From Alphaproteobacteria bacterium (GTDB taxonomy: Bacteria; Pseudomonadota; Alphaproteobacteria; UBA1280; UBA6503): a stretch of DNA of 64,000 nt. Shown here one piece after another: positions 6,083 to 64,000 of this stretch. Every line of letters starts with the position of its first letter. Position 1 is the first letter of the stretch. The DNA is taken from contig JAJFIW010000003.1 in NCBI GenBank assembly GCA_021774615.1, positions 7,867 to 71,866 of the forward strand. Reading direction: 5' to 3'. The notes under the pieces were generated by a model. That model made no database searches. It saw only the letters and a list, made by a program, of their open reading frames with translations, and was not told where the DNA came from. The position numbers and the translations under genes were made by a program.

Positions 6083-6170
6083 AACTTAATAAATGTTGTA
6101 GAATATCTGTGTATAGCTGTTCCTTTAGGCGGAACTTGGCGACAACTTAAGATAAGGAAAGAGATTTTCT

Positions 6171-6440: not shown

Positions 6441-6451
6441 GAATTTCTTAG

Positions 6452-6697
6452 ATGACAAAAAATAAAAAAACGACAAGCGCACGTCGTAAGTCTGGTACAA
6501 AGTCAGAGGCTGAGCTATACAAACTACCTAAATCCACCGTTGACGAATTCATCAAATCCGAACGCCGCCACGACGAACTAGACCGCATGCGCGAAGTCCA
6601 AGAGCAGAAACAGACTTGGCGTAGGACTATGTTTTTATGTGGACTTTTAAATCTTATTTTCCTGATATTAGCATACATTGGGTGGATGAATGGTTGA
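6452..6697 (+). CDS. small tail-anchored protein, paralog 2
   Basis: 81 aa sharing the ELYKLPKS..FIKSERRHDE..R.....QEQK..W block and C-terminal TM helix with 6171-6440. Stop overlaps the start of the GGDEF gene. Confidence 0.5.
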   Translation: MTKNKKTTSARRKSGTKSEAELYKLPKSTVDEFIKSERRHDELDRMREVQEQKQTWRRTMFLCGLLNLIFLILAYIGWMNG

Positions 6698-8366: not shown

Positions 8367-8505
8367 GTGCAAAGTTAAACTACTATAACGTAACGTTACA
8401 TCTTTTAACAAAATGTTATAACAATTCGTTGTATTATAAAAATTGCCATAAAATACAACTACCCTAACCTATTGTTTTTATTTATAAAAACTAACTGGTA
8501 AAAGT

Positions 8506-8521
8506 TGGCACTATGCTTGCA
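8506..8521 (+). promoter_or_regulatory. sigma54 (-24/-12) promoter TGGCAC-N5-TTGCA
   Basis: TTGGCACTATGCTTGCA is an exact match to the RpoN consensus GG-N10-GC spacing. No ORF follows; a Rho-independent terminator lies about 65 nt downstream. Confidence 0.45.
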
Positions 8522-8584
8522 CCTATACTAACTATGTGACCTTGCTATTATTTTAGTGAAGTACCCGACACACACAAAACTTTT

Positions 8585-8612
8585 GAGCCGCAATTAGCGG
8601 CTCTTTTTTTTG
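8585..8612 (+). terminator. Rho-independent terminator
   Basis: GAGCCGCAATTAGCGGCTC stem-loop followed by TTTTTTTT. Confidence 0.7.
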
Positions 8613-8705
8613 GTTTTTAATCCACCTGCGGTTAGGCAAAAGCCTAACTCTTGGTGCTGCGTTGGGCAGACTGTCGACAACCTCTCGTCTAGCGGCGACT
8701 CGGGA
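8605..8705 (+). repeat. about 100-nt structured repeat, copy B; directly follows the terminator T-run
   Basis: TTTTTAATCCACCTGCGGTTAGGCAAAAGCCTAACTCTTGGTGCTGCGTTGGGCAGACTGTCGACAACCTCTCGTCTAGCGGCGACTCGGGATG. Inverted relative to copy A at 505-612. Confidence 0.5.
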
Positions 8706-8710
8706 TGTCT

Positions 8711-11504: not shown

Positions 11505-12413
11505 ATGACTACAATCGGGCAACAATTTCTTGACGCTATCTACGCCGAAACGGCTCCATTGCTTGTTCTTGGCGCTCCCACACCTTTTGTTGCAATGCAA
11601 ATGGAGGCTAAAGGCTATAAGGCTGCATATTTGTCGGGCGCAGGGATGAGCTATTTTAGCTATGGCATCCCCGATGTAGGTATTTTAGGGCTAGATGAAG
11701 TAGCGGCCGAAGTTCGTAAATTCTGCCGAGTGTGCGACCTACCATTATTGGTAGACGTAGACACAGGTTGGAATGACCCCGAAAAAACAACCCAAACAAT
11801 TATTGCAGCAGGTGCTGCAGGTTTCCATATCGAAGACCAAACCGAGGACAAACGCTGCGGCCATTTAGACGGCAAAAGCATAGTCCCAACCACCGAAATG
11901 GCAGAACGAATTAAAGCGGCTGTAAAAGGCAAAACCTCAGGGCAAATAAAAGACCCTAACTTTATGATTATGGCACGTACCGACGCCTTTGCTATCGAAG
12001 GGTTTGAAGGTGCAATAAAACGGATTGAAGCCTACATAGATGCAGGTGCTACCGCAATTTTCGCCGAAGCCATGACAGACCTAGAGCACTACCGCAAAAT
12101 TAGAGATGTTATCGGTAAAGATATTCCACTACTTGCTAATATGACTGAATACGGCAAAACTCCGCTGTTTTCACAAAGCGAACTCGCCAGCGTGGATGTA
12201 GACATTATGCTACTACCAGTATCCCTTAACCGAGCCATGCACGGCATGACAACAACATGGCTCGACGAAATCAAAAAAACAGGCACAACCCAAGGTATGG
12301 TAGACCGTGGTGAGCTGCGCCCTCGGCACGAATATAGCGATTTAATAGACTATAACCCTCAAACTGATAGCCGTGAGACTGTGCTAGCACGTCTAAATGC
12401 ACGGCATAAATAA
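11505..12413 (+). CDS. prpB: 2-methylisocitrate lyase
   Basis: 302 aa of the ICL/PEP-mutase superfamily with a KRCGH catalytic motif, directly upstream of prpC and prpD. Confidence 0.85.
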   Translation: MTTIGQQFLDAIYAETAPLLVLGAPTPFVAMQMEAKGYKAAYLSGAGMSYFSYGIPDVGILGLDEVAAEVRKFCRVCDLPLLVDVDTGWNDPEKTTQTIIAAGAAGFHIEDQTEDKRCGHLDGKSIVPTTEMAERIKAAVKGKTSGQIKDPNFMIMARTDAFAIEGFEGAIKRIEAYIDAGATAIFAEAMTDLEHYRKIRDVIGKDIPLLANMTEYGKTPLFSQSELASVDVDIMLLPVSLNRAMHGMTTTWLDEIKKTGTTQGMVDRGELRPRHEYSDLIDYNPQTDSRETVLARLNARHK

Positions 12414-12434
12414 AACAACCAAGGAGCTTACCTT

Positions 12435-13559
12435 ATGACAGCACTACCTAAAAAGAAAACAGGCGGACTTGCAGGCATTGTAGCAGGTCAAACAGCAATC
12501 TCATCGGCTGGCGGTGCCCACGAGCTGCGTTACCGTGGCTATAGCATTTATGATCTGGCCGAACATTGCACTTTTGAGGAAGTTGCCTATCTTGTTATTT
12601 ACGGTAAACTACCCGACAAAATTGACCTTACAGCATTTAACGAGCGTTTGCATAACGAGCGCGATATTCCAGACTCGCTAAAAGAAGTGCTGGAACGTAT
12701 CCCAGCTACAGCCCACCCTATGGACGTTTTGCGTACAGGGGTTAGCTTTCTAGGTAATATCGAACCCGAAACCACAACCCACGACCAATTCGCCATTACC
12801 GAGCGCTTGCTGGCATGTTTACCAAGCATGATGCTGTATTGGTGGCACTATACCCAAAAGGGCGAGAAAATAGAGTGCATTAGCGAGGCCGACGGCATCG
12901 CCGAACATTTCTTAACCCTGCTCCACGGTAAGTACCCGTCAGAGCTACATAAAAAGATGATGAATATATCGCTAACTCTTTATGCCGAGCACGAGTTTAA
13001 CGCTTCAACTTTCACTGGCCGTATTATTACCTCAACCTTGTCCGACTTTTACTCGGCAACAGTTGGCGCAATCGGTGCATTACGAGGGCCACTGCACGGC
13101 GGCGCAAACGAAGCCGCGATGGAGCTAATCGCAAGCTATCAAACTCCAGACGAAGCTAGCAAAGGCGTGCTAGATAAACTAGCCAAAAAAGAGCTAATAA
13201 TGGGCTTCGGGCATAGGGTTTATACCGAAGCTGACCCCCGTAACCGCGTAATCAAAGAGTGCTCACGCAAACTTGCAGCCGACCACGGCGACATGACCCT
13301 GTTCGACATTTCAGCAGCAATCGAAAAAGTGCTGTGGGACGAAAAACACATGTTCCCCAACCTAGATTTTTACTCGGCCAGCACCTATAACCTAATGGGC
13401 ATTCCAACTCCACTCTTTACCCCAATTTTCGTAATGAGCCGCATCAGCGGCTGGGCAGCCCACTTTATCGAACAACGCGCCAACAACAAACTAATCCGCC
13501 CCGGCGCCGACTACATCGGGCCAAGTGAATTACCGTTTGTGGCGTTGGAGAAGCGGTAG
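12435..13559 (+). CDS. prpC: 2-methylcitrate synthase
   Basis: 374 aa of the citrate synthase family (GFGHRVY, HGGANEAAM motifs) sitting between prpB and prpD. Confidence 0.85.
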   Translation: MTALPKKKTGGLAGIVAGQTAISSAGGAHELRYRGYSIYDLAEHCTFEEVAYLVIYGKLPDKIDLTAFNERLHNERDIPDSLKEVLERIPATAHPMDVLRTGVSFLGNIEPETTTHDQFAITERLLACLPSMMLYWWHYTQKGEKIECISEADGIAEHFLTLLHGKYPSELHKKMMNISLTLYAEHEFNASTFTGRIITSTLSDFYSATVGAIGALRGPLHGGANEAAMELIASYQTPDEASKGVLDKLAKKELIMGFGHRVYTEADPRNRVIKECSRKLAADHGDMTLFDISAAIEKVLWDEKHMFPNLDFYSASTYNLMGIPTPLFTPIFVMSRISGWAAHFIEQRANNKLIRPGADYIGPSELPFVALEKR

Positions 13560-13598
13560 ATAAAATAAAATAATTAATAGAAATAATAAGGAAATAGC

Positions 13599-15056
13599 AT
13601 GAGCAACCTAGCCCACAGCCTAACTGATGACAACACTCGTAAAGATTATGACGAGGTATTGATGAAAATTGCGGATTATGTTTGTGATTTTGTGCCTAGT
13701 TCGACGGAAGATTACGACACTGCTCGTAATTGTTTGATGGACACCCTTGGGTGTGGGTTTTTAGCGTTGAAGTTCCCGCAGTGCCAAGCAATGCTGGGGG
13801 CAGTGGTTGAGGGCGCAGACTTACCTATGGATAAGGGCGGCGTGCCAGTGCCGGGGACTTCCCATACACTTGACCCAATTAAAGCTGCGTTCGACATTGG
13901 CTGCATGGTGCGTTGGCTCGACTATAACGACACGTGGCTTGCTGCCGAGTGGGGGCATCCCAGCGACAACCTTGGTGCAATTTTAGCATCTTGCGACTAC
14001 ATGACCAGAACTGGCAAGAAAAACTATACTGTCCACGATGTGCTTACTTACATGATAAAATCCCATGAAATACAGGGTATTTTAGCACTAGAAAACAGCT
14101 TTAATAAAGTAGGGCTAGACCATGTGGTATTGGTTAAGGTGGCGTCTACTGCTGTTGCAACCCACATTATGGGTGGCACAAAACAACAAGTGCTTGATGC
14201 CGTAAGCCACGCATGGCTAGACGGGCAAAGCCTACGGACTTACCGCCATTCGCCAAATACAGGTAGCCGCAAAAGCTGGGCTGCGGGCGACGCTACCAGC
14301 CGTGCAGTACGCCTTGCATTAATTGTACTAAAAGGCGAAATGGGCTACCCAAGCGTGCTAACCGCACCTACTTGGGGCTTTTATGATGTGTTGTTTAAGG
14401 GTAAAGAGTTTAAATTCCAACGGGAGTTTTCTAGCTACGTAATGGAGAATATTCTATTTAAAATTAGCTTTCCTGCCGAGTTCCATAGCCAAACAGCAGT
14501 AGAAGCTGCGGTAAAACTGCATGATGTAGTTAAAAACCGCCTTGATGATATCGAACGGATTGAGCTAATAACCCACGAGGCCGCAATTCGGATTATTAGC
14601 AAGACTGGTGCACTCCATAACTTTGCCGACCGTGACCATTGCTTGCAATATATGGTGGCAGTGCCACTAATAAAAGGTAACCTTACCGAAGATGACTACT
14701 CGGACGAGGCAGCGTCTAACCCACAAATAGATGTTTTACGAGAAAAAATGGTAGTAAGTGAGGACAAACAATACTCGGTTGACTACCATGACCCCGAAAA
14801 ACGCAGCATTGCTAATGCTATCCAAATTTTCTTTACCAATGGCACAAGCAGCGAAAAAGTAGCGATTGAATACCCAATCGGCCACCGCCGCCGCCGAGAC
14901 GAGGGGATACCAGTGCTAGAAGAAAAGTTTAAACGTAACCTACGAGTTGTTTTTGACGATACCCAAGCCAACAACATTTTCGCACTGTGTAAAGACGTGG
15001 ATAGGCTGAATAAAACACTAGTAACAGACTTTAGCGAGATGCTTATTCGCAGATAA
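13599..15056 (+). CDS. prpD: 2-methylcitrate dehydratase
   Basis: 485-aa MmgE/PrpD-family protein in the prpBCD gene order. Confidence 0.85.
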   Translation: MSNLAHSLTDDNTRKDYDEVLMKIADYVCDFVPSSTEDYDTARNCLMDTLGCGFLALKFPQCQAMLGAVVEGADLPMDKGGVPVPGTSHTLDPIKAAFDIGCMVRWLDYNDTWLAAEWGHPSDNLGAILASCDYMTRTGKKNYTVHDVLTYMIKSHEIQGILALENSFNKVGLDHVVLVKVASTAVATHIMGGTKQQVLDAVSHAWLDGQSLRTYRHSPNTGSRKSWAAGDATSRAVRLALIVLKGEMGYPSVLTAPTWGFYDVLFKGKEFKFQREFSSYVMENILFKISFPAEFHSQTAVEAAVKLHDVVKNRLDDIERIELITHEAAIRIISKTGALHNFADRDHCLQYMVAVPLIKGNLTEDDYSDEAASNPQIDVLREKMVVSEDKQYSVDYHDPEKRSIANAIQIFFTNGTSSEKVAIEYPIGHRRRRDEGIPVLEEKFKRNLRVVFDDTQANNIFALCKDVDRLNKTLVTDFSEMLIRR

Positions 15057-34419: not shown

Positions 34420-36555
34420 TTAAAATTTGAAAGATGCCTTAACTTGCCCAGTATGGCTTAAAAATTCGTCTTTAATCTGGGCATCATAACCAAATTGCAG
34501 AGTTATCATTTTATTTGCCGACTCAAAAGTAAAAGACGTACCTAGGTTAAGCGATTCTTCAGCTATTTGTACCTGTTGGTCAGACACAAACGCGCCACCA
34601 CCAAAAGCACGAGTGCTTTGTACTTCATCGCTAGCAAAGTCGTACATTAGGTTGGCATGTATTTCGGGGCGGTATGTATTCATATTGTATTTGTATGACC
34701 CCTCTAACCTAGCACCTATTTTACCTACCAAGGAATTTTTACTAGAGATAAGGTCTTGCACAGTGTTTACATTATCGCGCAGGGTAACTTTATCTTTGGT
34801 AATATGGGTGTAGTTTAAACCAGCCTCTGGGATAATATAAGTAGTATTTGCTACGTTAAACTTTTTACCAAACTTAATGTCAGCTCCATATTGATTGGTC
34901 GAGTAATCCCCCGACATCCGCCCAAAACCAAGTACATTTTGTGCTGTATTAACATCGTTAATACCAAAATGAACTGACCCTGTTATAAATGAGTCATCTA
35001 TTGTTTTGTCGCCATATAAAGCTAAAATATAGGTATTAACTTTAGCGTCAGAGTTTGCAAAGCTTTCGCCATTAATATCGGCATAGTTATAGCTAAATGC
35101 TAAGCCTGCACGGGTCCCTGTAGTAACTTCGTTATCGTAACCAATTGTGCCGCCAATGCTGTTGGCCTCGTAGCCTGCAATTCCTTTGCGTGCTCCTTGG
35201 TCAAGGGTGCTTGCAGTGCCTTGGAACCACATTTTATTATTTGCAGTAATATCACCTGCAGAAACACCTAAACTACCACCTCGTAAACTAGCAAGGCGAT
35301 TAGCAATACTTGTAGTAGTCACATGGAAAACTTCTGTCGCAGCATTGTTAATAGCACCTGCAACAACGTTTGCATCCCCTAGTTTGCCTACAGCTTCTTG
35401 AATTTGGGAGGGCGTACCAGCAACAGCAGTGTTTATAGCAGTTTGAACCGTAGCAGGAAGAGTAGCACCACTAGTAAGTTGGATTATTTTACCTGCATCA
35501 GTAGTGCTAACGCCTAAAGTTGTAGCAATTTGAGTTGTTGGTTTAGCAGCTCCTGCTGTAATTTCAACATTGGTACCATTAACAGCAACTGTGAAATTAC
35601 GAAACAAGTTATCAGCGTTAATGTTAGCTACATTTTCATCGGCATTACCAACTAGGTTATCAACTAGCACAACTGTCCCTGAACCAAAAGCAACATCAGG
35701 AATAACTGCAACATTACCTGTCATGTTTAAGGTTGTGCCTGTAAATACAGTTGTTGCATTAATAAATCCATCGCCAAGGTTAAGAGTACCCGTTTGTAAA
35801 GCAACGCTTGATAGGTCAACAGTTCCATTAAATGAAGCCGATGCCGCAGGGTTAGAAATATTAATTGTACCTGAATTATTTAGTATGCTTCCTGCCGTAA
35901 TGCCGTAAGTTCCTGCAGTTAGGTTGCCATTATTATTTATAATAGTGTTTGAAGTGGTAGCTAATGAATTTACAATAGAGGTTGTTCCACCAAGATCAAT
36001 CTGAGCAACAGCTGTAGCTGAATTACCAACCAAAGTAATACCTCCAGTTGTAATATCTCCTGAGACTAATAACGATGCATCTTTATCTGCTATTGTATTA
36101 TTAGATATAATAGTAATAAATCCTTCTCCAAGGTTTAGATCACCAGTAACATCAACAATAATGTCACTATTAGCTGCACCAAACCCACCTATTGCGGCTA
36201 TAGTTAAATTTAAATCCTGTCCAGTAGCTGCATTAATATTACCAATAACTTGTAAGGTTTGTGGCATAGCTACAGCTGATTGTAGTATGCTTAGGGATGA
36301 TGGCCCTGTATTGAAAAGCGTATTAATAGCATCAGGATCAACAGCTGTTTCACCAACAGTTCTATTGTTATCTATAAATATGGTTTCACCAGCGCCTGTA
36401 ATATTTAAATCTTTATTCTCATCACCAGCAATAAGTGGGGAATTAACAGCGAGCATCGCATCATCTACAACATCAGCAAAAGCTATGCTTGGCAAAGTGC
36501 TTATACCAATAAGAGCTGTTGTTGCTAGCAGTAGTGGCATTTGCTTAATTTTCAT
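34420..36555 (-). CDS. autotransporter (type Va) outer-membrane protein with T/N/G-rich passenger
   Basis: Signal peptide MKIKQMPLLLATTALIGISTLPSIAFA, a repetitive T/G/N/A-rich passenger of about 400 aa, and a C-terminal beta-barrel translocator ending ...GQVKASFKF (terminal aromatic residue). Confidence 0.75.
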   Translation of the reverse strand: MKIKQMPLLLATTALIGISTLPSIAFADVVDDAMLAVNSPLIAGDENKDLNITGAGETIFIDNNRTVGETAVDPDAINTLFNTGPSSLSILQSAVAMPQTLQVIGNINAATGQDLNLTIAAIGGFGAANSDIIVDVTGDLNLGEGFITIISNNTIADKDASLLVSGDITTGGITLVGNSATAVAQIDLGGTTSIVNSLATTSNTIINNNGNLTAGTYGITAGSILNNSGTINISNPAASASFNGTVDLSSVALQTGTLNLGDGFINATTVFTGTTLNMTGNVAVIPDVAFGSGTVVLVDNLVGNADENVANINADNLFRNFTVAVNGTNVEITAGAAKPTTQIATTLGVSTTDAGKIIQLTSGATLPATVQTAINTAVAGTPSQIQEAVGKLGDANVVAGAINNAATEVFHVTTTSIANRLASLRGGSLGVSAGDITANNKMWFQGTASTLDQGARKGIAGYEANSIGGTIGYDNEVTTGTRAGLAFSYNYADINGESFANSDAKVNTYILALYGDKTIDDSFITGSVHFGINDVNTAQNVLGFGRMSGDYSTNQYGADIKFGKKFNVANTTYIIPEAGLNYTHITKDKVTLRDNVNTVQDLISSKNSLVGKIGARLEGSYKYNMNTYRPEIHANLMYDFASDEVQSTRAFGGGAFVSDQQVQIAEESLNLGTSFTFESANKMITLQFGYDAQIKDEFLSHTGQVKASFKF

Positions 36556-41636: not shown

Positions 41637-42368
41637 ATGAATTTTAAAATGTTTGTTTTCTTGTTAGGTCTGAGTGCTATGTTTGGTAGCATTTCTGCGT
41701 ATGCTCAAGAAGAACAAGATTTATTGCCACCACCATTGCCAAGTTCTTTGGAGGTTGCAAGTAAACCTGTTGTTGAATACCTCCCAGAACAAGATTTAGA
41801 AAAACTGTTTGAAGATGCACACCGTAATTTTGGACAGGATTTTGGCGAATTAAAAGGGGAGCTCCCTGTTAATAATATTCAAGAAGATATAAAAGTAGAA
41901 GATGCTAAACCTACTGTTATTCCAGAGCCAACAGCCATTGTTAAAAAAGATGAGGTAGATAGCGCTGCTCCTAAACCTGCTATAGTTAAGAAAGCTGAAC
42001 AACCTAAAGCTAGGCAGCTTGATAAAAAGCAGGATGTTAAAATGGTTAGAGGTAGGAATATAAAACAAGATTTTATCTCGCTTGGGGATGTGCGTGTTAA
42101 CGTATCGCTTGAGAATATTACTTTAGAAGAAGTTATATCGTCAGTTGTTAGCAAGGCTGAAAAACAAACAGGGCCATGGAAAGTTCGTTGGAGATTAAAA
42201 GATGAAAACCAAGTATTGAGGCATGAGCGGGTTAACATTAATGCTGAGAGCGACTTTGAAACATTTATGGCAAACCTGATGGCTAAAGTAAATAATACTA
42301 CTGGAACAAAATTATTTATTAAAGTATTTGAAACATCACGAATTATTATAATAGCTGATAATTTTTAG
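41637..42368 (+). CDS. secreted protein, possible TcpQ/BfpG-like secretin partner
   Basis: Signal peptide MNFKMFVFLLGLSAMFGSISAYA, an acidic P/K-rich linker, and a conserved C-terminal domain (~110 aa; ...GPWKVRWRLKDENQVL...). Lies 17 nt upstream of the liposecretin. The family assignment is inference only. Confidence 0.4.
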   Translation: MNFKMFVFLLGLSAMFGSISAYAQEEQDLLPPPLPSSLEVASKPVVEYLPEQDLEKLFEDAHRNFGQDFGELKGELPVNNIQEDIKVEDAKPTVIPEPTAIVKKDEVDSAAPKPAIVKKAEQPKARQLDKKQDVKMVRGRNIKQDFISLGDVRVNVSLENITLEEVISSVVSKAEKQTGPWKVRWRLKDENQVLRHERVNINAESDFETFMANLMAKVNNTTGTKLFIKVFETSRIIIIADNF

Positions 42369-42384
42369 GGAGAAATTTAGTATA

Positions 42385-44148
42385 ATGCGAGGGTTATTTA
42401 CACCAATTAAGAGTATTTTACTTTATACGGTTCTTATTGTATCGGCTGTATACTTGTCTGCTTGTACGGCTATTTACCGTGATACTGTTAAAGCCCCTAC
42501 AAAACAAGAAATTGTAGAATTAAAAACAATGCAACCGCGTAGTGTTCTTAAAAAAGGCACATTCCATATGCAAAGAGTTAGTGACCGCTCGAGCGTTTTG
42601 GTTGACCCTGCTATTAAGCTGAAACGGCCAGAACTACCACCGTTTGATGTAGTATATATTTCGCAACCTGTAGAAGATATCCTTATTGAGCTTGCAAACA
42701 CTGCTGGCGAATCTATTGTGATTCCATCAAGCGTACGAGAGCAAACAATTACTGTTGTTCACTCTGGCTCTAACTTTAAGGGTATGCTCGATATTGTATT
42801 GTCTAAGGTAGGCTATCATTATAACTATGTAGAAGGTGTATGGTATATTACCCGTTTCCCAGTTCGTAATTACCAGCTTGAGATATCGCAGTCAGACAGA
42901 GGTGGTTCTCTTAATACTGCTTTAGAACCTAAACAGATTATAAGCGATGCTGCTACAGTAGAAGCTAGTGGTGGTATTGAAGAATTATCAACTTCTTATA
43001 CTGATGAGTTGTGGGAACAAGTTTCTGATACTTTAGAGCAGCTTGTTTTGGTAGGTACGGGCTCGTCTGCATTAGCAGACTCTGGAAGTGATGAAACATT
43101 TGGCGGAGTTAGCGCTGCTTCTGGATCTGTAGTCGGTTCAAATACAGAGCAAAGCAGGCTTATCCCTGAAGCAGGTTTTTCGGGTGGAAGTGGTGATACA
43201 ACCCGTCCTGAAGATTTGCCAGCAGTACAAGGTAGTGACCATTTATCTTCTGGCGATGATGCACAGCCTTTCTTACAAATAACACCTAGTGCAGGTATTA
43301 TTACAGTTAGGACTTCTCCTGAAGCACACCGGATGATTGAAACATACCTTGAGCAAGTTCAACAATCACTATTACGTCAAATATTTGTTGAAGCAAGGAT
43401 TGTTGCAATTGTGACGGATAAAGAAACTAACCGTGGGAGTAACTTATCTGGTAGTTCTTTAGATTTAGGTATTCCGGGGCTTAAATCTTTAGGTGGTGCG
43501 CTTGGGTTTAGTGGCCAGCCTGCTGTACCAACTGGTGTTAACGAGCAATTGGGTGGGTTCTTAAACCTAACGTTTAATAATAATAATATTCAATCGGTAG
43601 TACAAATGCTTAACCAAGTTGGTGATGTTTATACTATTTCTAGCCCATCTCTTCTTGCTAGAAATAACCAAATATCACGAGTGGCGATTACCCAACAAAT
43701 TGGTTATGCAGAAACAACTGTTGAAACTAACACAAACTCTGACGGTAATGTTGTTATTGGTCAGCGTACAGATGAAGCGCAGTTCCGTAATGCGGGTACA
43801 GTTTTGTCAATTATCCCATTTATTGGTAAAAATAAAGTACAAATGCGGATGCGCCTCTCCATATCTAACCAGTCTGGGGCTGTTTCTATCTTTACTGCTG
43901 TGGGTGTTGGTGACCCTGTAAGAAATGATGTACCAGAGTTAAGCACAAACTTAATCGACCAAGACATGATCATGGACTACGGCCGTGTGCATGCAATTGG
44001 TGGTGTTATCCAATCTAGTACAAACCTAGATAGTTCGTATGTTCCTGGGTTTAACCATGTACCAGGCTTACGCGAGATATTCTCAACTGCAAATAATAAG
44101 AAAACAAATACCGAGTTTATGGTATTAATGCGGGTGTCTAGATCATAA
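42385..44148 (+). CDS. secretin (GspD/PilQ superfamily) with lipoprotein signal (liposecretin)
   Basis: Lipobox LSAC at the signal-peptide end, an N0/STN-like domain, a 120-aa G/S/D-rich disordered linker, and a C-terminal secretin domain ending ...VPGFNHVPGLREIFSTANNKKTNTEFMVLMRV. Confidence 0.75.
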   Translation: MRGLFTPIKSILLYTVLIVSAVYLSACTAIYRDTVKAPTKQEIVELKTMQPRSVLKKGTFHMQRVSDRSSVLVDPAIKLKRPELPPFDVVYISQPVEDILIELANTAGESIVIPSSVREQTITVVHSGSNFKGMLDIVLSKVGYHYNYVEGVWYITRFPVRNYQLEISQSDRGGSLNTALEPKQIISDAATVEASGGIEELSTSYTDELWEQVSDTLEQLVLVGTGSSALADSGSDETFGGVSAASGSVVGSNTEQSRLIPEAGFSGGSGDTTRPEDLPAVQGSDHLSSGDDAQPFLQITPSAGIITVRTSPEAHRMIETYLEQVQQSLLRQIFVEARIVAIVTDKETNRGSNLSGSSLDLGIPGLKSLGGALGFSGQPAVPTGVNEQLGGFLNLTFNNNNIQSVVQMLNQVGDVYTISSPSLLARNNQISRVAITQQIGYAETTVETNTNSDGNVVIGQRTDEAQFRNAGTVLSIIPFIGKNKVQMRMRLSISNQSGAVSIFTAVGVGDPVRNDVPELSTNLIDQDMIMDYGRVHAIGGVIQSSTNLDSSYVPGFNHVPGLREIFSTANNKKTNTEFMVLMRVSRS

Positions 44149-44162
44149 GATTTTTCTAACAA

Positions 44163-44195
44163 ATAAAAAAAGCCCCGCAATATGCGGGGCTTTTT
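44163..44195. terminator. bidirectional Rho-independent terminator between secretin and rpsD
   Basis: AAAAAAAGCCCCGCAATATGCGGGGCTTTTT. Confidence 0.65.
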
Positions 44196-57091: not shown

Positions 57092-57676
57092 CTACTTTTG
57101 CCTTTGGGCATAAGTAAGTAGAATTTTATATGCGTCATTAATGCGCTGGATGCGCTCAACAGCATCTGGCGCATTTTGATGTAAATCTGGGTGATATTTT
57201 TTAGCTAATTGGCGATAAGCAGTTTTAACCTTATTAAGGTCTCGAGGTGTAGAAATACCTAAAGTTTGGCATGCTTTACGGATCTGCCCGGGCACCATAT
57301 CTTGTTTTGGCTCGGGCTTATGAGTATCTTGTTGGCGCATATGTTCACCAAAAACACGGTAGGGGTCTGTTATTTTCTCGTCTATAGTTGCGCTTTTGTA
57401 AGAGTGGCTCCCGACGCCCATTTTCCAAGTTGGTCTATTCCAGTAACCACCTTGTTGCATGGTGAATATCTCATCGCTAGATAGGCCTTCAAGCCCATTC
57501 CAATGTTTATTATATTCTTTTACGTGCTCTAGGCAGAAATAAATACGTTGCCCTAGTTTTTGGGCATCACGTGGCGCTGGAAATTCGCCTTCTTTTCCAC
57601 AATCTGGATAAGCACAAATGCGTTTGAAAGTCATGCAGCTACCTCTTTTTAAAAACAACGAAGTATAAGAGAGCAA
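57092..57676 (-). CDS. J-domain protein with N-terminal Cys/His zinc-ribbon-like segment
   Basis: C-terminal J domain with HPD (AYRQLAKKYHPDLHQ); N-terminal C-x2-C ... C-x2-H (CAYPDCGKEG...FCLEH). Confidence 0.65.
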   Translation of the reverse strand: MLSYTSLFLKRGSCMTFKRICAYPDCGKEGEFPAPRDAQKLGQRIYFCLEHVKEYNKHWNGLEGLSSDEIFTMQQGGYWNRPTWKMGVGSHSYKSATIDEKITDPYRVFGEHMRQQDTHKPEPKQDMVPGQIRKACQTLGISTPRDLNKVKTAYRQLAKKYHPDLHQNAPDAVERIQRINDAYKILLTYAQRQK

Positions 57677-57694: not shown

Positions 57695-58309
57695 TTATCC
57701 TAAAATAAAGAATATCATATCCATGAGTGGTTGTTGTAGAGTAACCATAACCCATAAGCCAATGCTTAGCCCAAAGCCAAAGGGAATAGCCTGCCCACGT
57801 GGTATTACTAGCGATAATACTAGGTTGCTCATAAAAGCAATTGCAAGTGCAAAGGGTAGTGCTGGTAAGCCCACCCATGCGCCTAGTACGGCAAGCATTT
57901 TTACATCGCCAAAGCCTAAGTCACCTTCACCTTTGTGCAAAGCTTTAAGGATAAGGTCTATCACAACTCCAATGCTAGCAGCTACCAATATACCAAGTAT
58001 ACTTTCGATGATTGTAACTTCTAGAATTAAAGGCGCATAAATCAGACCTAAAATTAAGAGAGGGATAGTATAGATATTTAGAAGTAAAAAATGGCATAAA
58101 TCAACAGCAGTCATCCGCCCTAGTAGTACTGCAATTGGTATAAGTAATATAGACTGTAGTGCTGTTAATCCACCATAAATAAACCCTGCCAATAAAAGGC
58201 TACAAAGCCCAACACTTAATAATGCCCAAGCTCGATTTATAAAGCGTACAGGTAGTATGCCGTCGTCAATTTCCTCAGGCAGCACATACCTTTTTTCTAG
58301 TTCCCACAT
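57695..58309 (-). CDS. A24-family prepilin peptidase, short form with no N-terminal Zn/methyltransferase domain
   Basis: Multi-pass membrane protein with the two catalytic Asp motifs (RMTAVDLCHF and GEGDLGFGDVKMLAVLGAWVG). About 200 aa, so comparable to the TadV/CpaA-type. Confidence 0.75.
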   Translation of the reverse strand: MWELEKRYVLPEEIDDGILPVRFINRAWALLSVGLCSLLLAGFIYGGLTALQSILLIPIAVLLGRMTAVDLCHFLLLNIYTIPLLILGLIYAPLILEVTIIESILGILVAASIGVVIDLILKALHKGEGDLGFGDVKMLAVLGAWVGLPALPFALAIAFMSNLVLSLVIPRGQAIPFGFGLSIGLWVMVTLQQPLMDMIFFILG

Positions 58310-58335
58310 GGCTTATGTTATTTGTCCTATTATGG

Positions 58336-59376
58336 TTATGGGCAGTTTGTGACATAGCTAATTTTAACTGTAAATGGTGCTTTTAGCACATTATTATAGT
58401 TTGATCTGTAGCATAATCTCCTTAGATCTGGGAATGTATTATATTTTGAGGGTGGTAGGTTTAATAAAGTAAGTAAATCACTATCGTTAACCTCGTCTAG
58501 CTCTGGCGCAACTGCTGCTCTTCCATGAGGGATATAATAATAATTATTTGGTGCAATAACCCCGTCATTAGCATCATGAATAGAATTAGGGAAATAATTT
58601 AGATTTTGCTCCTCCCCAGGCTGGTAAGCACCATCATTATTAAAGTCACAACGAGGGTGTAATAATTCTGGGTTTGCAGTTGTGGCACAGAATATTTTAT
58701 TTTCAATACGAAGAGTTCTCTCGTACTCTTGGAGACGTTTTTGTACGGTTGCAGCTCTTCTATGAGTTTCTAGTGCAGCTTTCTTAACATGTTCAATTGT
58801 AGAGAATTTAACACCAATATCATCACTCATAGGTTTCCAGTTTGTATAATCTGTAATACAGTTAGCTTCAGTATCTTTTCTTAGTATTACACTAGTAGTA
58901 CCGTCATCAGAGCTAATTCCCGAGTCATAGTTTTTATCAGGTCCAGAAGAGTATATAACTACATTATCAACACCAAATAATGTCCCTCCCACATTAATAG
59001 TAGTGTTGCACATACCGAACATCCAGTCATGTCCCCAAGGGTCTTTCTCTAAGGATGAATCCTTTAGATAGTCAACGTCATTTCCTGTAACAACTCTTCC
59101 ATTTACCCAGTCCCTAAGGTTAACTGTAGTCCTAGGTATTAATACGGTATAATTAACGAAATTAGTCCTATCAATGCCTGGGGTAGAAATAAACATTTCT
59201 TCAAGGGCATCAGCTATTTTTTGTACGCCAATATCTGATGACTCAACCCGATTTTTTTCTATTTTACTAACTACTTGTGTTCCGACAACACCAGCCAATA
59301 CACTTACAATTACAAGGGCAACACGAGTGTCCATCGAGAACATCGCACCTCTTTGTGAAGACAGTAATTTAAACAT
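58336..59376 (-). CDS. large prepilin-like protein (class III signal peptide), paralog 1
   Basis: Leader MFKLLSSQRG followed by AMFSMDTRVALVIVSVLAGVVGTQVV (a basic residue + Gly cleavage context, then a 22-aa hydrophobic helix). A Cys-rich C-terminal half shares blocks with the next ORF (DDIG.KFSTI, PRCDFNNDGAYQ.GEE, PNNYYYIP.GRAA). Confidence 0.5.
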   Translation of the reverse strand: MFKLLSSQRGAMFSMDTRVALVIVSVLAGVVGTQVVSKIEKNRVESSDIGVQKIADALEEMFISTPGIDRTNFVNYTVLIPRTTVNLRDWVNGRVVTGNDVDYLKDSSLEKDPWGHDWMFGMCNTTINVGGTLFGVDNVVIYSSGPDKNYDSGISSDDGTTSVILRKDTEANCITDYTNWKPMSDDIGVKFSTIEHVKKAALETHRRAATVQKRLQEYERTLRIENKIFCATTANPELLHPRCDFNNDGAYQPGEEQNLNYFPNSIHDANDGVIAPNNYYYIPHGRAAVAPELDEVNDSDLLTLLNLPPSKYNTFPDLRRLCYRSNYNNVLKAPFTVKISYVTNCP

Positions 59377-59394
59377 TATATTACTATTCCTTGT

Positions 59395-60432
59395 TTATGG
59401 TGTTGGGCAAACTGCCGCATAACTTAATTTAATTGTAAAAGGGGACTGCATATTGCCAGTACGGTTTGACTCGTAGCACAATAATTTACCCCATGGGTCA
59501 GTTGCATAGCTTGCATCTAGACCTAAAGAAATAACAAAAGCTTGCATGCCTGCAAGGTTAAATGCTACATCACCAACCTCGGTACCAGCTGCTGCTCTGC
59601 CATAAGGTATATAGTAATAATTGTTTGGAGGTACCGCTGTATCTACTGTATCAGTAGCCGAACGAGGGAAATAATTTGACCCTATTTCTTCACCTGTTTG
59701 GTAGGCTCCATCATTATTAAAATCGCAGCGTGGGTTTAAAGTCTCAGGGTTTAGTGTAGTAGAACAAAAATCTTGGTTTTCCATAACTTTTGTTGCTTCA
59801 TATGCTTGTAAGGATTCTTGTATAATAATAAGCTTATTCTTCATTTCAGTAATATAAGCTCGCTCAATATCTATAGTGCTAAATTTCATACCAATATCGT
59901 CATTAATTGTGTTCCAAGCTGCAAAATTTGCTACACAAGTAGCATTAGCAAGGATATCACCTGTTCCAGAACTAAGTGTTCGGTCTGGGCCACCAGAATA
60001 TATAACGGCATAATGTACGGTTACTTGAACTCCTTCAATAGTTTGTGTAGCTACACATTTATCAAACGCCCAAGTTTGCCCCCAAGGCTCTTCTACTAAG
60101 GCTGCAGATACTAACCCTGCGTCTATAACTCTGGTTTGGTAGCTACCTAAACCTGTATTAAAGTTAGTTGGTAGAGGGACCAGGGCTGTGTGGCCAGCAG
60201 GTAAACCATTAAGAGCAGTTACAGTAGGTTGAGATTTATAATAGGTCTCAAGCCCATCAACAAGTGCACTTACACTAATTTCGGCTGCTTCTACCCGATT
60301 ACGCTCAACCTTTTGGATAACCTGAGTCCCCACTACGCCAGCTAGCACGCTTGCAATTATTAATGCAATCCGAGCGTCCATCGAGAACATCGCACCTTTT
60401 TGTAGTTTTATTAGGTTTTCAATCATCTTCAT
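59395..60432 (-). CDS. large prepilin-like protein (class III signal peptide), paralog 2
   Basis: Leader MKMIENLIKLQKG then AMFSMDARIALIIASVLAGVVGTQVI. C-terminal conserved Cys-containing blocks are shared with 58336-59376. Confidence 0.5.
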   Translation of the reverse strand: MKMIENLIKLQKGAMFSMDARIALIIASVLAGVVGTQVIQKVERNRVEAAEISVSALVDGLETYYKSQPTVTALNGLPAGHTALVPLPTNFNTGLGSYQTRVIDAGLVSAALVEEPWGQTWAFDKCVATQTIEGVQVTVHYAVIYSGGPDRTLSSGTGDILANATCVANFAAWNTINDDIGMKFSTIDIERAYITEMKNKLIIIQESLQAYEATKVMENQDFCSTTLNPETLNPRCDFNNDGAYQTGEEIGSNYFPRSATDTVDTAVPPNNYYYIPYGRAAAGTEVGDVAFNLAGMQAFVISLGLDASYATDPWGKLLCYESNRTGNMQSPFTIKLSYAAVCPTP

Positions 60433-60447
60433 GCCTTTTTATAAGAG

Positions 60448-61656
60448 TTAATTACCTTTTCTAACGCAACGTGTATTGATACCTAGGCTGCCTTTACCAG
60501 ACTGATAGATAAGCCCGTCACCGAAAGATACTGTGTTTGCAGCACTGTCAGTAGCTTCAGTTGATGTCCAGTATAATTCCCAATCGGTAAATCCACCAAT
60601 AGTGGCTTTGTTTGTATAAAGAGTGCTTAGTTCATTTCTTGATGGTAAGTACCAGTCATCAAAACCATTTAAAACAAGGTTGTGGCATAGTGCTGCTACT
60701 GGGTATTTGGCTGCACCAAGCCCTATATAAGTATCAGTATTTGCTGCACCATCTAGTAGGCTAGTTGCACCAGTTATAACATTCTCAGTAGAAAATACAG
60801 GTGTGCCTGCTTCATCTTGTTCTGCAGATACTAAAGCACCTACACCAGCTGCAAGGCAAATGCCTCCTTGGGCATTGTTGCCTAGGCCTGCACATGAATC
60901 TGGCATTACTATAACGTTATCCATATTCATCGGTACAGTTAAAACTTGTGCCCATGGGGTTGTAGCTTGAAGCTGCGCTATGTTGTCTGAAGTAATAGCA
61001 TAGGTAAATGCTCCTCCCCAGAAATCAGTAGTACTTGATTGTGCTGCAATAGCGGGGTATTCTACAAGTGTTGGGAATCTACCATTCTTTCCCCAGAACG
61101 AATATAATATTTCAGAATATTTTTCCATTCTATCTATAGTTTCTGCAATTTGCTTAGTTCTAATTCCAGATGTATCAATGGTTATAACATCATCACGATT
61201 GTTTATTGTGTCAGCTGCCATTGCAGCTGCATCACCAGCAGTTTCTAGAGCAGTTATTTGTGTGCGAACAAGGTTGTCATCACTTGTTGAAATTATAATT
61301 TGCTGAGAATTGGTACCAACATCTGTTGTAATTGTACCTATAGCAATATTTTGACCAGACCTAGTGCCACCACCAATACTTTTTGCAACAAAGCTATTAA
61401 TAGCGTTGGTATCAACAGCTCCAAATGTACCTGTTGTTTCTGCCATTAGTGCGCCTTCAACGGCTCTTCGGTAAGTATCAGCTGTTTCTTTTGAACGCTG
61501 CTCTTGCTGCTCTTGGATACGCTTCATTTCTAGGTCTGCTTGTATTTTTATACCACCAGAAAGCACTGCCACACCAGCAAGCATACCAAATAGGAACGGA
61601 GAAACCGCCCCTCTTTGACGCACAATAGCGCATTTAATGTAATTTATTAGATCCAA
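60448..61656 (-). CDS. prepilin-like N-terminus fused to a C-terminal DUF1566 (Lcl C-terminal) domain
   Basis: Leader ...IVRQRG then AVSPFLFGMLAGVAVLSGG. C-terminus DWYLPSRNELSTLY...WELYWTSTEATDSAANTVSFGDG...INTRCVRKG matches the DUF1566 consensus (W.LP...EL..L ... YWSST ... VRCVR). Confidence 0.55.
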   Translation of the reverse strand: MDLINYIKCAIVRQRGAVSPFLFGMLAGVAVLSGGIKIQADLEMKRIQEQQEQRSKETADTYRRAVEGALMAETTGTFGAVDTNAINSFVAKSIGGGTRSGQNIAIGTITTDVGTNSQQIIISTSDDNLVRTQITALETAGDAAAMAADTINNRDDVITIDTSGIRTKQIAETIDRMEKYSEILYSFWGKNGRFPTLVEYPAIAAQSSTTDFWGGAFTYAITSDNIAQLQATTPWAQVLTVPMNMDNVIVMPDSCAGLGNNAQGGICLAAGVGALVSAEQDEAGTPVFSTENVITGATSLLDGAANTDTYIGLGAAKYPVAALCHNLVLNGFDDWYLPSRNELSTLYTNKATIGGFTDWELYWTSTEATDSAANTVSFGDGLIYQSGKGSLGINTRCVRKGN

Positions 61657-61682
61657 AATTCCCCCAAACTACTTCTTTTGCT

Positions 61683-62522
61683 TTATAAAGCCATCTTGAT
61701 TGGTAGCACATATTCCACACCATCAACTGACAACATAACTTTACGATGCTTTATAGCAGTTATTGTCACACTTATATTATGTGCATTAGCATTAGAATCT
61801 GCCTGACGTTTTGCTTTCTCTATCCTGTAGTTATTGATTGCTTCATCTCTCAATAATTCAAATTGTTTGTATGTTTTTTCTGAGATGTTCTCACTCGAGG
61901 GCATTTGTGCATTTATAAGTTCGATTATTTTAGGCTCATTATCGGTAATGTGGATTGGCATTAAGAATCTGTCACCAATAGAGAAACGTTGGTTGTTTAT
62001 AACTACATAAGGTGTTGGTGTAACCATCATTGACGATATAACAATTTTGCTTAAATCTTTCTTAAAATCCCTTTGAACTACCTCTGGAGAGGATTGTAGA
62101 GATTCTGTTGTAACAATTGTTCTTAGATAATTACGAAATTCTTCTAAATCCAATTTTTCTTGAATAAATTCCATTGGTAGATCTGGTACCGTAATATCTA
62201 CAGGTAATTGCGGTAATAAAGGTAAAGTTTCTTGTTTCTCTTCAATATTAAATGGATCTATTAAGTCGCGCCTAATAAGCATAGACATTGTTGGCGTGCC
62301 GATCTCTCTGGCGGTTACCTTACCTCTTGCCGCAGGAGTTATGGTGGTAGTATCAGCTTTATCTAGATCTTTTCTTGTAAACTCGAACTCAGCTTGTCCA
62401 GAAGTAAATGAAGACGGCCAGTCAATAGCATTAACCGTTGGTACAGTTATAATAATAAGTAGTAGTATAAAACTACCATTTACTATAGTTGTTTTATTAA
62501 GCTTTATCTGGGTTAGATACAT
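61683..62522 (-). CDS. bitopic periplasmic protein, possible GspC/PilP-like assembly component
   Basis: N-terminal TM/signal segment (SFILLLIIITVPTVNA) and a small beta-rich C-terminal domain (NISVTITAIKHRKVMLSVDGVEYVLPI). The assignment is inferred from position only. Confidence 0.35.
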   Translation of the reverse strand: MYLTQIKLNKTTIVNGSFILLLIIITVPTVNAIDWPSSFTSGQAEFEFTRKDLDKADTTTITPAARGKVTAREIGTPTMSMLIRRDLIDPFNIEEKQETLPLLPQLPVDITVPDLPMEFIQEKLDLEEFRNYLRTIVTTESLQSSPEVVQRDFKKDLSKIVISSMMVTPTPYVVINNQRFSIGDRFLMPIHITDNEPKIIELINAQMPSSENISEKTYKQFELLRDEAINNYRIEKAKRQADSNANAHNISVTITAIKHRKVMLSVDGVEYVLPIKMAL

Positions 62523-62997
62523 AAATTAGCCCTCTAATTAAGATAGGATATTTTCCTTCTTCTTTTGCTACTCCCGACAAACCACATTTAAAACATATAT
62601 GAGTTATAATAAAGCCTGGTGTATTTTCCATTTTCTGCATAAGTTTTATGGTTTCAAAGTAACTAGCATTTCCTCTTATATTAAATTCATGAATATAGAA
62701 AAATCTATTTGCAGGAGCATCTGGTTTTATGTTGGAAGAAAATCTAAATGATAAACTAGTACCACCAAGCTCCAGTGTTCTTTCTATATTTGCTTTTTGG
62801 TCATCACCAGTACGCATTACTAAATTATCTATTTTCGCCTTTCTTTTTTCAAGGTGCTTCATTTCGTCTATTTGGCTTTGCATATGTTTGAACATTTGCT
62901 GCGATTTGTATAAGGCGTCTTTGTCCTCAAAAAATTGGAATGAGCCAATTATTATTGATAAAATAAGCAATGATAATCCTAAAGGAAATTTTATCAT
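62497..62997 (-). CDS. bitopic protein, GspM/PilO-like (TM + coiled coil + periplasmic domain)
   Basis: N-terminal TM helix LGLSLLILSIIIGSF, a coiled-coil region, and a periplasmic domain of about 90 aa. Overlaps neighbouring genes on both sides (operon). Confidence 0.4.
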   Translation of the reverse strand: MIKFPLGLSLLILSIIIGSFQFFEDKDALYKSQQMFKHMQSQIDEMKHLEKRKAKIDNLVMRTGDDQKANIERTLELGGTSLSFRFSSNIKPDAPANRFFYIHEFNIRGNASYFETIKLMQKMENTPGFIITHICFKCGLSGVAKEEGKYPILIRGLIYVSNPDKA

Positions 62998-63977
62998 TTC
63001 GAACTACCTTTACTTGTTGCTGGCTGCTTTGTAGCACCTTGAATTGAGAGGAAATCCAAATACGACTTAGCTACTTTTTCTAATGGTATAAGCCCCTCAA
63101 TCATAAAATCTGTGGGGTTACCTGTAATTGGTGGTTTTCTAATTTTATTTATAGTTAGGCTTGAAGATAGAAACTTCTTGGCAATAGGCTCTTGCTCTTC
63201 ATATGTTGCATAATGTTTTGTACTTGATTTAATCTTCGTTATAAATGCATCAGGCGGTGTTTTCGGATTTGGGTTCTCAAGAATATAGCTAGTTACAACA
63301 AAATTGGTATCTGCTAAAGCAAGGCTTATATCTTTAAAAATTAGAGAGAACAAAGATTGGTATTTTGAATAGCTCTCAATAGTTTGGATATGGTTTACAA
63401 TTGTTCTAAAATCTGGGTTTTGATTGGTCTGAGTTGATAATTTCTTTATTGCATAAGATGATTTTATAATTTGCTGTTGTTGGTATTCAGACACTGTATA
63501 TGCTAATGCTGCTGCTAAAACTCCAGCTAGTAGCATGTAGTCGCCGTATTTCTCTTGTAGGGTAGGTCTATTTATCCACATGTTTGTATTAATAGGCATG
63601 CTTAATAAAGGGTGGAGCTCAATATCCTGTATATCTTTTGCTGGCGATGTGTCCCAATTTGTATAAATATTTTTTTTTGTTGTTCTTGGGTAAGTTTTTA
63701 AAATTAGCTCTAAATCTTGAGGCCAAGTTTCTGGCGATGTGGGCTGTATATAATTATCTTGGCTATCCCAGTGGAAGATAACATCAGCAACAATAATCGC
63801 ATACATAGTATTAGGCGCAGATCTTCCTGAACGACAAAAGTCAAACATAGAAATAGACTTCATTTCTTGAAGCATTTGCTGAGTAGTAATGTCGTCAAGG
63901 TCATCACCAATAATGGTAGATGCAGGGTCCATAGGTTCACCATGAAGGTCTCGAGGAGAGAAAAACCCGAGCATCAT
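62994..63977 (-). CDS. bitopic protein, GspL/PilN-like (cytoplasmic domain, central TM, periplasmic domain); start may lie at or beyond the window edge
   Basis: A cytoplasmic segment of about 140 aa, a TM helix YGDYMLLAGVLAAALAYTV, and a periplasmic domain of about 170 aa. The gene order resembles gspL-M-(C)-pseudopilins-O. Confidence 0.4.
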   Translation of the reverse strand: MMLGFFSPRDLHGEPMDPASTIIGDDLDDITTQQMLQEMKSISMFDFCRSGRSAPNTMYAIIVADVIFHWDSQDNYIQPTSPETWPQDLELILKTYPRTTKKNIYTNWDTSPAKDIQDIELHPLLSMPINTNMWINRPTLQEKYGDYMLLAGVLAAALAYTVSEYQQQQIIKSSYAIKKLSTQTNQNPDFRTIVNHIQTIESYSKYQSLFSLIFKDISLALADTNFVVTSYILENPNPKTPPDAFITKIKSSTKHYATYEEQEPIAKKFLSSSLTINKIRKPPITGNPTDFMIEGLIPLEKVAKSYLDFLSIQGATKQPATSKGSSK

Positions 63978-64000
63978 ATTACGCCGTGACTGCTCATCTG

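Follow-up and report, generated by a model that had tools for sequence, protein, structure and literature searches.

The window analysed here is a 64,000-nt stretch of contig JAJFIW010000003.1 from an alphaproteobacterium (assembly GCA_021774615.1), and the subject of this report is a pair of forward-strand genes within it that encode a secretin and a putative partner protein. The upstream gene (41637-42368, +) encodes a 243-aa Sec-exported periplasmic protein, as read from its open reading frame and from conserved-domain alignments. It is followed, after 16 nt (42369-42384, +), by the gene for a 587-aa MshL-like lipoprotein secretin (42385-44148, +), assigned by PF00263, NCBIfam and hhalign comparisons and by an AlphaFold model. 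A GGAGA Shine-Dalgarno sequence lies 11 nt 5′ of the secretin ATG, and the short spacing together with this site is consistent with an operon whose genes may be translationally coupled. The 175-nt spacer between putA and the partner gene yielded no sigma-70-like promoter. A GC-rich hairpin between A and T runs (44167-44195, assigned to neither strand), with the sequence features of a bidirectional terminator, lies between the converging secretin and rpsD genes. The two-gene operon described in the first-pass annotation of this DNA was confirmed, both by the coordinates and 16-nt spacing of the reading frames and by the relatives: in all 31 related loci with a complete secretin, a reading frame ending in the partner's conserved domain lies directly 5′ of the secretin, at gaps of −44 to +38 nt.

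Membership of the secretin superfamily is clear. PF00263 matches residues 409-583 (E 8e-23; 81.3 bits against a gathering cut-off of 27.5 bits), in agreement with the canonical C-terminus noted at first pass, and Foldseek recovered secretin structures at E values down to 3.5e-15 with an AlphaFold model built on a 75-homologue alignment (mean predicted local distance difference test score, pLDDT, 71.6). The lipoprotein signal peptide (42385-42465, +) carries a hydrophobic leader and ends in the lipobox L-S-A-C27, with the Cys27 codon, TGT, at 42463-42465. The previously reported LSAC lipobox is strongly conserved, since Cys27 is invariant in all 75 homologues and is preceded by Ala, Gly or Ser in each of them; the +2 residue is Thr, Ser, Ala or Gly, and never Asp.

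The model places a helix at residues 40-48, an extended segment, an N0 domain (87-156), an N3 domain split into two parts (202-220 and 296-344), and the barrel (392-586). The tether that precedes N0 (aa 28-86; 42466-42642, +), delimited from conserved columns and from the model, bears two near-invariant motifs, G58-x-F-H-M-Q63 and I77-x-L-K-x-P-x-L-P-P-F-D-V89, the second of which runs into the N0 domain. By position, the tether would be equivalent to the "LG domain" of BfpB, following the LG/GBR concept developed for the BfpB tether (PMC12531336), and is a candidate binding region for the partner protein. The N0/STN-like domain (42643-42852, +), defined by the model, the MshL alignment and Foldseek, adopts the b-a-b-b-a-b-b fold with pLDDT values above 90, and is the best conserved part of the secretin (mean majority fraction 0.81). 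The N0 domains of PilQ, GspD and EscC are among the Foldseek matches of the model. The earlier assignment of an N0/STN-like domain is upheld by these structural data, the Pfam STN model giving no match to this region.

A single N3-type ring-building domain follows (aa 202-344; 42988-43416, +), recognised from its secondary structure and pLDDT profile. Its motif ITVRxxPEAHRxIExYLxQVQ aligns with VVVRATPKEHKQIEAYLDLVQ of MshL. The Gly/Ser/Asp-rich disordered segment described at first pass is real (aa 230-294; 43072-43266, +; 12 Ser, 11 Gly and 7 Asp among 65 residues, pLDDT below 50), but it is not an inter-domain linker: it is an insertion within N3, between helix 209-220 and strand 296-300, and its length varies from 51 to 117 aa among homologues. 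The β-barrel domain (aa 392-586; 43558-44142, +) is supported by Pfam, AlphaFold, Foldseek and conservation, and since the protein terminates one residue past the last barrel strand, an S-domain is absent.

The first-pass annotation had described lipidated self-piloting secretins as characteristic of type IVb pili (BfpB, TcpC) and of some type II secretion variants, and had left the class to a comparison of hidden Markov models. In that comparison the MshL model scored best among the curated NCBIfam models, at 117 bits, above GspD (74), PilQ (56), SctC (41), type IVb PilN (33) and HofQ (21). The score against the MshL model TIGR02519 (116.8 bits) is below its cut-off of 250.2 bits, yet the best of all secretin models. 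GspD (TIGR02517) reached 73.6 bits against 351 and type IVb PilN (TIGR02520) 33.2 bits against 287.65, and HofQ (NF010083), PilQ (TIGR02515) and SctC (TIGR02516) all lie far below their cut-offs and below MshL. The same order emerged when the secretin family profile was aligned by hhalign with single reference sequences under identical conditions. The MshL of Legionella adelaidensis aligned over 450 columns, from the tether through N0, N3 and barrel (E 2.4e-21; profile columns 72-586 against MshL residues 62-549, with about 23 % identity), whereas E. coli GspD aligned over the barrel only (E 4.2e-6, 222 columns), HofQ over 249 columns (E 7.2e-6), and BfpB alone over 120 columns (E 4.1e-4). A profile of seven type IVb secretins did align end to end, from lipobox to barrel, at E 8.7e-18, which is still worse than the single MshL. 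Translated searches (tblastn) of plasmids with the secretin returned matches to its C-terminal half only, at about 25 % identity, to GspD, MshL and hypothetical proteins. The grouping with BfpB, TcpC and PilN therefore did not hold, on the strength of 33 bits against a cut-off of 288 and E 4e-4 for BfpB, and the nearest known class is MshL, which had not been considered. Nor does the secretin group with competence or type III secretion secretins, HofQ giving 21 bits and E 7e-6 and SctC 41 bits.

The likeness to MshL is one of overall build. It includes collinear N0, N3 (with the shared motif VRAxPxxHxxIExYLxxVQ) and barrel domains, a low-complexity insertion at the corresponding position of N3, and an N-terminal lipobox (LLLFAC in Legionella MshL, its LFAC corresponding to the Cys27 lipobox here); Shewanella MshL is likewise listed as an outer-membrane lipoprotein (PMC3223724). 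Apart from the score below the cut-off and the identity of about 23 %, the differences are those of setting and of the C-terminus. The gene does not lie in an mshI-J-K-L-M-N-E-G cluster of the mannose-sensitive haemagglutinin (MSHA) type, between mshK and mshM, but among housekeeping genes, with putA and rpsD as neighbours; no MshM- or MshN-like genes were found in the related filament operons examined. The protein lacks the approximately 55-residue C-terminal tail of Legionella MshL, and has a TcpQ-like gene at its 5′ side, of which there is none in the MSHA locus examined. That reference locus (L048, 406-11830) is a complete MSHA-like locus beside uvrB, on a 365-kb Legionella adelaidensis record labelled as a plasmid, and encodes four pseudopilins, PilM/PilN-like proteins, a 241-aa protein, a 115-aa MshK-like protein, MshL (LFAC), an AAA ATPase, a 351-aa hypothetical protein and a GspE/PulE-family ATPase. 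In our reading, the secretin is a divergent MshL-like liposecretin whose overall build is common to the type IVb secretins as well.

Comparison with the liposecretin HxcQ and the type II secretion system is also instructive. HxcQ is lipidated and self-piloting, with no pilotin, according to the accounts of Viarre et al. 2009 given in PMC2996285 and PMC4471445, and the secretin described here probably resembles it in these respects. The platform and pseudopilin-like proteins of the presumed client operon (see below) score best against GspF and GspG. In contrast, GspD models match only the C-terminal half of the secretin (74 against 351 bits), and the protein has one N0 and one N3 domain rather than N0-N1-N2-N3, so that N1 and N2 are absent; nor do the genes follow the order GspC-D-E-F or include a set of five pseudopilins.

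The partner protein has a signal peptide (aa 1-23; 41637-41705, +), placed by alignment, with predicted cleavage between SISAYA and QEE. Its middle part is variable, rich in Pro, Lys and Glu, and probably disordered, and is followed by a conserved C-terminal domain of about 95 aa (aa ~150-243; 42084-42365, +) with the predicted secondary structure (b)-a-b-b-a-b-b. The secreted 243-aa protein with a conserved C-terminal domain, as originally described, is thus recovered. The domain was assigned as TcpQ/BfpG-like from sub-threshold Pfam matches and hhalign. Collinear sub-threshold matches to Pfam TcpQ, spanning profile positions 7-79 of 80, were given by 16 of 31 members of the partner family, the best of them at 19.2 bits (E 1.3e-3), below the gathering score of 27 bits. 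The partner profile aligned with BfpG alone at E 1.8e-3, and with seven TcpQ-domain proteins of type IVb plasmid loci at E 4.5e-4. A more diverse domain alignment (A9), drawn from an exhaustive phmmer search comprising 182 clusters, aligned with the same seven proteins (A5) over 72 columns at a probability of 87.8 % and E 3.4e-6, beside controls at E 0.19-0.55. Remote homology of the whole domain to TcpQ is therefore found at profile level; since bridging in Pfam through distant members failed, the link is a profile-profile one only.

The controls as a whole were negative (E 0.03-0.63). They set the partner against the secretin N0, TcpQ against the secretin, the partner against type IVb secretins, and the partner against the two genes 5′ of Legionella mshL. 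An origin of the partner as a duplicate of the secretin's own N0 was likewise rejected, the profile comparison giving no signal. Comparison of the partner with solved structures gave no sequence match at protein or profile level. One phmmer match, P0237, is a protein of 3829 aa with ten stretches aligning to domain residues 14-63, and may represent either a repeat protein or an artefact of low complexity.

The cryo-electron microscopy study of BfpB-BfpG, published in 2025, presents BfpG/TcpQ-type proteins as the typical secretin-binding partners of type IVb systems (PMC12531336). BfpG has an N0-like fold, and its strands β3 (NYTLN) and β5 (IKFYN) are the ones that bind a pair of short strands in the tether of BfpB. 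In the hhalign alignment, the corresponding BfpG segments, NYTLNAS and VFIKFYN, fall opposite the most conserved segments of the partner, ERVNLTAE and LFIKVFE. A TcpQ-domain gene lies directly 5′ of a lipoprotein secretin gene in all seven type IVb loci that were fetched, and two of the seven TcpQ proteins are about 275 aa long with the domain at the C-terminus, as in the partner. On this sequence-level evidence, the partner is a remote homologue of the TcpQ/BfpG type, encoded in the type IVb gene order.

These resemblances raise the question of whether the pair is a genuine type IVb secretin module of the BfpB/TcpC/PilN kind that came, TcpQ partner included, from a type IVb pilus locus. The similarities to BfpB-BfpG, TcpC-TcpQ and PilN (PMC12531336) are considerable. 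The partner gene precedes the secretin gene by a few nucleotides; the partner is non-lipidated and Sec-exported, with a TcpQ-like C-terminal domain; and the secretin carries a lipobox and a tether that joins the predicted lipid anchor to N0, has N0 and N3 in one copy each, and lacks an S-domain. The combination of a lipoprotein secretin and a TcpQ-domain-like gene directly upstream, which characterises type IVb loci, is present in 31 of 31 loci. The end-to-end alignment with the type IVb profile given above points the same way, as does the best full-length Foldseek match, which is BfpB in the BfpB-BfpG complex (9u5s, E 3.5e-15), with all secretin classes close behind. Sequence similarity to type IVb secretins, on the other hand, is weak: TIGR02520 scores lowest among the models for secretins of pili and secretion systems, MshL as a single sequence aligns far better than either BfpB alone or the seven-sequence type IVb profile, and a profile search of the Protein Data Bank ranked GspD above BfpB. 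As for the partner, its homology is remote and its scores stay under the Pfam cut-off. The other components of the presumed machine, whose genes are some 13.5 kb away, are not of the type IVb kind but PilB/GspE-, GspF- and GspG-like, and the housekeeping context of the pair, conserved across 45-70 % identity, does not indicate recent transfer. A genuine type IVb module of such origin is consequently considered improbable.

The gene pair stands apart from any pilus or secretion locus. Its 5′ neighbours are putA, an LD-carboxypeptidase gene and a DUF1294 gene, and its 3′ neighbours are rpsD, an htrA-like protease gene, uvrB and uvrC; no pilus or secretion genes flank it in the annotation of the window. 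A tblastn sweep of the 64 kb found no second secretin, ATPase or platform gene. This housekeeping setting (DUF1294 and putA on the 5′ side, rpsD and uvrB on the 3′ side) is constant in the related loci, and the secretin is detached from the filament operon in 34 of 34 genome loci, which agrees with the stand-alone position between putA and rpsD that was first noted. The secretin has more than 120 full-length homologues at 45-70 % identity, counted as protein clusters, and all are from uncultured bacteria; conservation of this breadth places the gene pair far beyond chance. The hosts of all 34 loci are metagenome-assembled genomes of uncultured "Alphaproteobacteria", "Proteobacteria" or "Magnetococcales", and one of them is MarineProteo1_Bin2, from the MarineProteo1 group used in debates on mitochondrial ancestry (PMC10411912).

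An operon of type IV filament genes without a secretin is the only candidate client in the window, which contains its tail (57695-64000, −), recognised from gene content and relatives. Read along the coordinates, this tail comprises a short A24 prepilin peptidase of 204 aa, identified by a Peptidase_A24 Pfam match only (57695-58309, −); two pilin-like paralogues with weak GspG similarity and prepilin-like N-termini (58336-59376 and 59395-60432, both −); a 402-aa pilin-like protein with a prepilin-like N-terminus, weak GspG similarity and a C-terminal DUF1566/Lcl_C domain (60448-61656, −); two proteins of 279 aa (61683-62522, −) and 166 aa (62497-62997, −) with no family assignment; and a reading frame listed as 327 aa, also with no family assignment, that runs off the end of the window (62994-64000, −). 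A 370-aa homologue of the latter, in the related locus L005, aligns up to position 63998, and the window probably truncates this reading frame; a genome scan with its 327-aa product gave no match. Genes for the ATPase and the platform should follow shortly after position 64000. All three pilin-like proteins are unusually large. The tandem paralogues are 345 and 346 aa long, 43 % identical, and have the leaders QRGAMFSMD and QKGAMFSMD. These leaders carry Asp at the position where classical type IV pilins have Glu5. At 204 aa, the A24 peptidase is too short, compared with longer members of its family, to contain the N-terminal methyltransferase part.

Full-length versions of the operon in the related loci L005 and L006 encode a small pilin-like protein, a PilB/GspE-like ATPase, a GspF-like platform protein, proteins of about 370, 167 and 277 aa, pilin-like proteins and the A24 peptidase, and contain no secretin gene. 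The ATPase and platform proteins score 251 bits with PilB, 235 with GspE and 97 with GspF, far below the curated cut-offs, and the filament machine is accordingly very divergent. Neither a five-pseudopilin set nor a retraction ATPase was found in the operon. Assignment of the 279-aa protein to MshK, GspB, GspC or PilP was considered and is unsupported, with faint T2SSB matches at E ~0.05-0.07 and an MshK hhalign value of E 0.32.

Two further features accompany the operon. A gene for a 194-aa protein with a Cys-rich N-terminal segment and a C-terminal J-domain lies directly 3′ of the A24 gene (57092-57676, −), and this A24-DnaJ adjacency is conserved in L002 (28-1032) and L005 (11047-12319). 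In addition, the ATPase of the related operons has a weak match to an N-terminal domain of the MshEN type, which is a cyclic di-GMP-binding module. A signalling cluster is located at 4052-10078 in the window, with genes for an EAL protein (4052-6082), an EamA-GGDEF protein (6690-8366) and a sigma-54-dependent response regulator (8711-10078, −), and it is a matter of speculation that an MshEN-type ATPase could be tied to it.

Taken together, the gene pair probably forms the outer-membrane gate of a separately encoded type IV filament machine. Service in trans to the operon at 57.7-64 kb, about 13.5 kb away, which the first-pass annotation had suggested, is well supported but unproven, and several lines of evidence make it likely: the operon is secretin-less in full-length relatives, it shares a contig with the secretin, and the partner's domain is found behind this operon in distant relatives. 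Secretin and pilin-like homologues lie on contigs of identical length in five cases (85356, the source contig, 41255, 280847, 109055 and 144478 bp). On the 280,847-bp contig (NODE_24), some 19 kb separates the two sets of genes, which lie on opposite strands as they do in the window; in L002, the distance from the secretin to the A24-DnaJ pair is 9.5 kb.

The strongest contextual link was obtained from a metagenome scan with the partner domain, made using the sub-family alignment A10. In three loci (L052, L053 and L054), an operon whose genes match in order and size has two tandem lipoprotein genes directly behind it (782/896 aa and 484/512 aa; L053, 7601-11830; L052, 7952-11767; L054, 39-1858), and the product of each has the partner's domain at its C-terminus. 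No secretin gene was found within these three loci. The succession of the same operon and the partner-domain genes ties the partner-domain family to this type of filament operon. The 896-aa lipoprotein of L053 has the lipobox IIGC and a long internal helical repeat. Its N-terminal segment (LSKGSVFMKRK) bears a faint likeness to the secretin tether (LKKGTFHMQRV), which did not reach significance (hhalign E 0.05).

A number of observations weigh against this interpretation. The link between pore and operon is indirect, the view is that of one 64-kb genome window, and the secretin is adjacent to the filament operon in none of the 34 genome loci. The secretin falls below every curated NCBIfam subfamily cut-off. 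The partner encoded in the window has no match in Pfam (PF10671 included, at E≤1) or NCBIfam, and 64 further family representatives gave no Pfam TcpQ match at E≤0.01, so that the TcpQ/BfpG-like identity proposed at first pass holds for the family and its profile (87.8 % by hhalign) but not for a direct PF10671 match of this protein. The AlphaFold model of the partner, built from only three sequences, is poor (pLDDT 46), and fold searches with it returned generic alpha/beta folds. Finally, the 279-aa operon protein, the candidate for binding N0, is unmatched to GspC, PilP and MshK.

The single window and the absence of secretin-operon adjacency in the 34 loci are compatible with another explanation, in which the pore is part of some other machine, for type II secretion or a type IV pilus, encoded outside the 64 kb, and the operon at 57.7-64 kb uses another secretin or none. 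The metagenomic operons of L052 and L053, which have partner-domain genes but no nearby secretin, also show that such operons can lie far from secretins. This explanation is nevertheless unlikely. The full-length operons of relatives are without a secretin, several relatives have secretin and operon within 10-19 kb of each other on one contig, the partner domain is tied to the filament operon type, and the window contains no other filament genes.

The stand-alone position among housekeeping genes might also suggest an orphan secretin that is independent of any pilin-based machine, and that serves, for example, in polymer or slime export or in the extrusion of filamentous phage; a role of secretins in slime secretion has been reported (PMC12475490). 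The flanks of the pair contain no phage or polysaccharide genes, the N0 docking domain is intact and highly conserved, and the pairing of the secretin with its TcpQ-like partner is strict; in other lineages, the domain of that partner goes with filament operons. An orphan function is thus regarded as very improbable. In the preferred reading, that of a gate for a separately encoded filament system, the distant machine may either make a pilus or secrete proteins.

The following mechanism is proposed for such a gate. The secretin would be exported by Sec and lipidated on Cys27, and the Lol pathway would then deliver it to the outer membrane, with neither a pilotin nor an S-domain needed ("self-piloting"). 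Self-piloting has been shown for the lipoprotein secretins HxcQ, as PMC2996285 and PMC4471445 relate from Viarre et al. 2009, and BfpB, and the prerequisites for self-piloting are present in the sequence, namely a conserved lipobox, a +2 residue other than Asp, and the lack of an S-domain. Once in the membrane, the secretin would multimerise into a gated β-barrel, with one N3 ring and one N0 ring reaching into the periplasm, and the tether of about 60 residues would run back from N0 to the lipid anchor. The TcpQ/BfpG-like domain of the soluble periplasmic partner probably clamps the tether motifs by β-strand addition, and the partner would thereby promote or stabilise the secretin multimer, as BfpG does for BfpB. 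The N0 ring would dock onto the periplasmic part of the inner-membrane platform of the PilB/GspE-GspF-type operon, which extends from 57.7 to beyond 64 kb.

The remainder of the window holds ordinary chromosomal content, including a class A RNase P RNA (608-957, −), a prpB-prpC-prpD-like methylcitrate set (11505-15056, +) encoding members of the PEP mutase/isocitrate lyase, citrate synthase and MmgE/PrpD families, and a gene for a 711-aa autotransporter (34420-36555, −).

The system is an unusual mix of known parts, and not a new principle or a new kind of system. Its status as a variant follows from the combination of an MshL-like secretin with a TcpQ-like partner, from the permanent detachment of the pair, and from its restriction to lineages represented by metagenome-assembled genomes only. 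A wider reading, which is conceivable but doubtful, is that the MshL-like liposecretin, the TcpQ-like partner and the divergent, secretin-less PilB/GspE-GspF operon make up a class of type IV filament machine of their own, not yet classified and limited to Alphaproteobacteria-like lineages without cultured members, MarineProteo1 among them. Under the same doubtful reading, the class would include the giant GspG-like "pilins", the methyltransferase-less A24 peptidase and the attached J-domain protein. There might also be a sister version, in which the TcpQ-like domain is carried on two operon-end lipoproteins of 500-900 aa that replace or extend the tether of the secretin.

The accepted view of how secretins function is unchanged by these findings. 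Their value lies in part in the hosts, which are lineages with metagenome-assembled genomes only, and whose surface machines are otherwise uncharacterised. The locus also offers a clean natural example of a secretin gene that has stayed separate from its operon across long evolutionary distances; programs that detect systems automatically by co-localisation would miss such a secretin, or would call the system incomplete. A remote relative of TcpQ and a secretin of the MshL lineage are strictly coupled here, and the secretin probably serves a machine whose inner parts are like those of type II secretion or type IVa systems, which suggests that the arrangement of a lipid-anchored tether and an N0-fold clamp predates the type IVb class or is more mobile than it.

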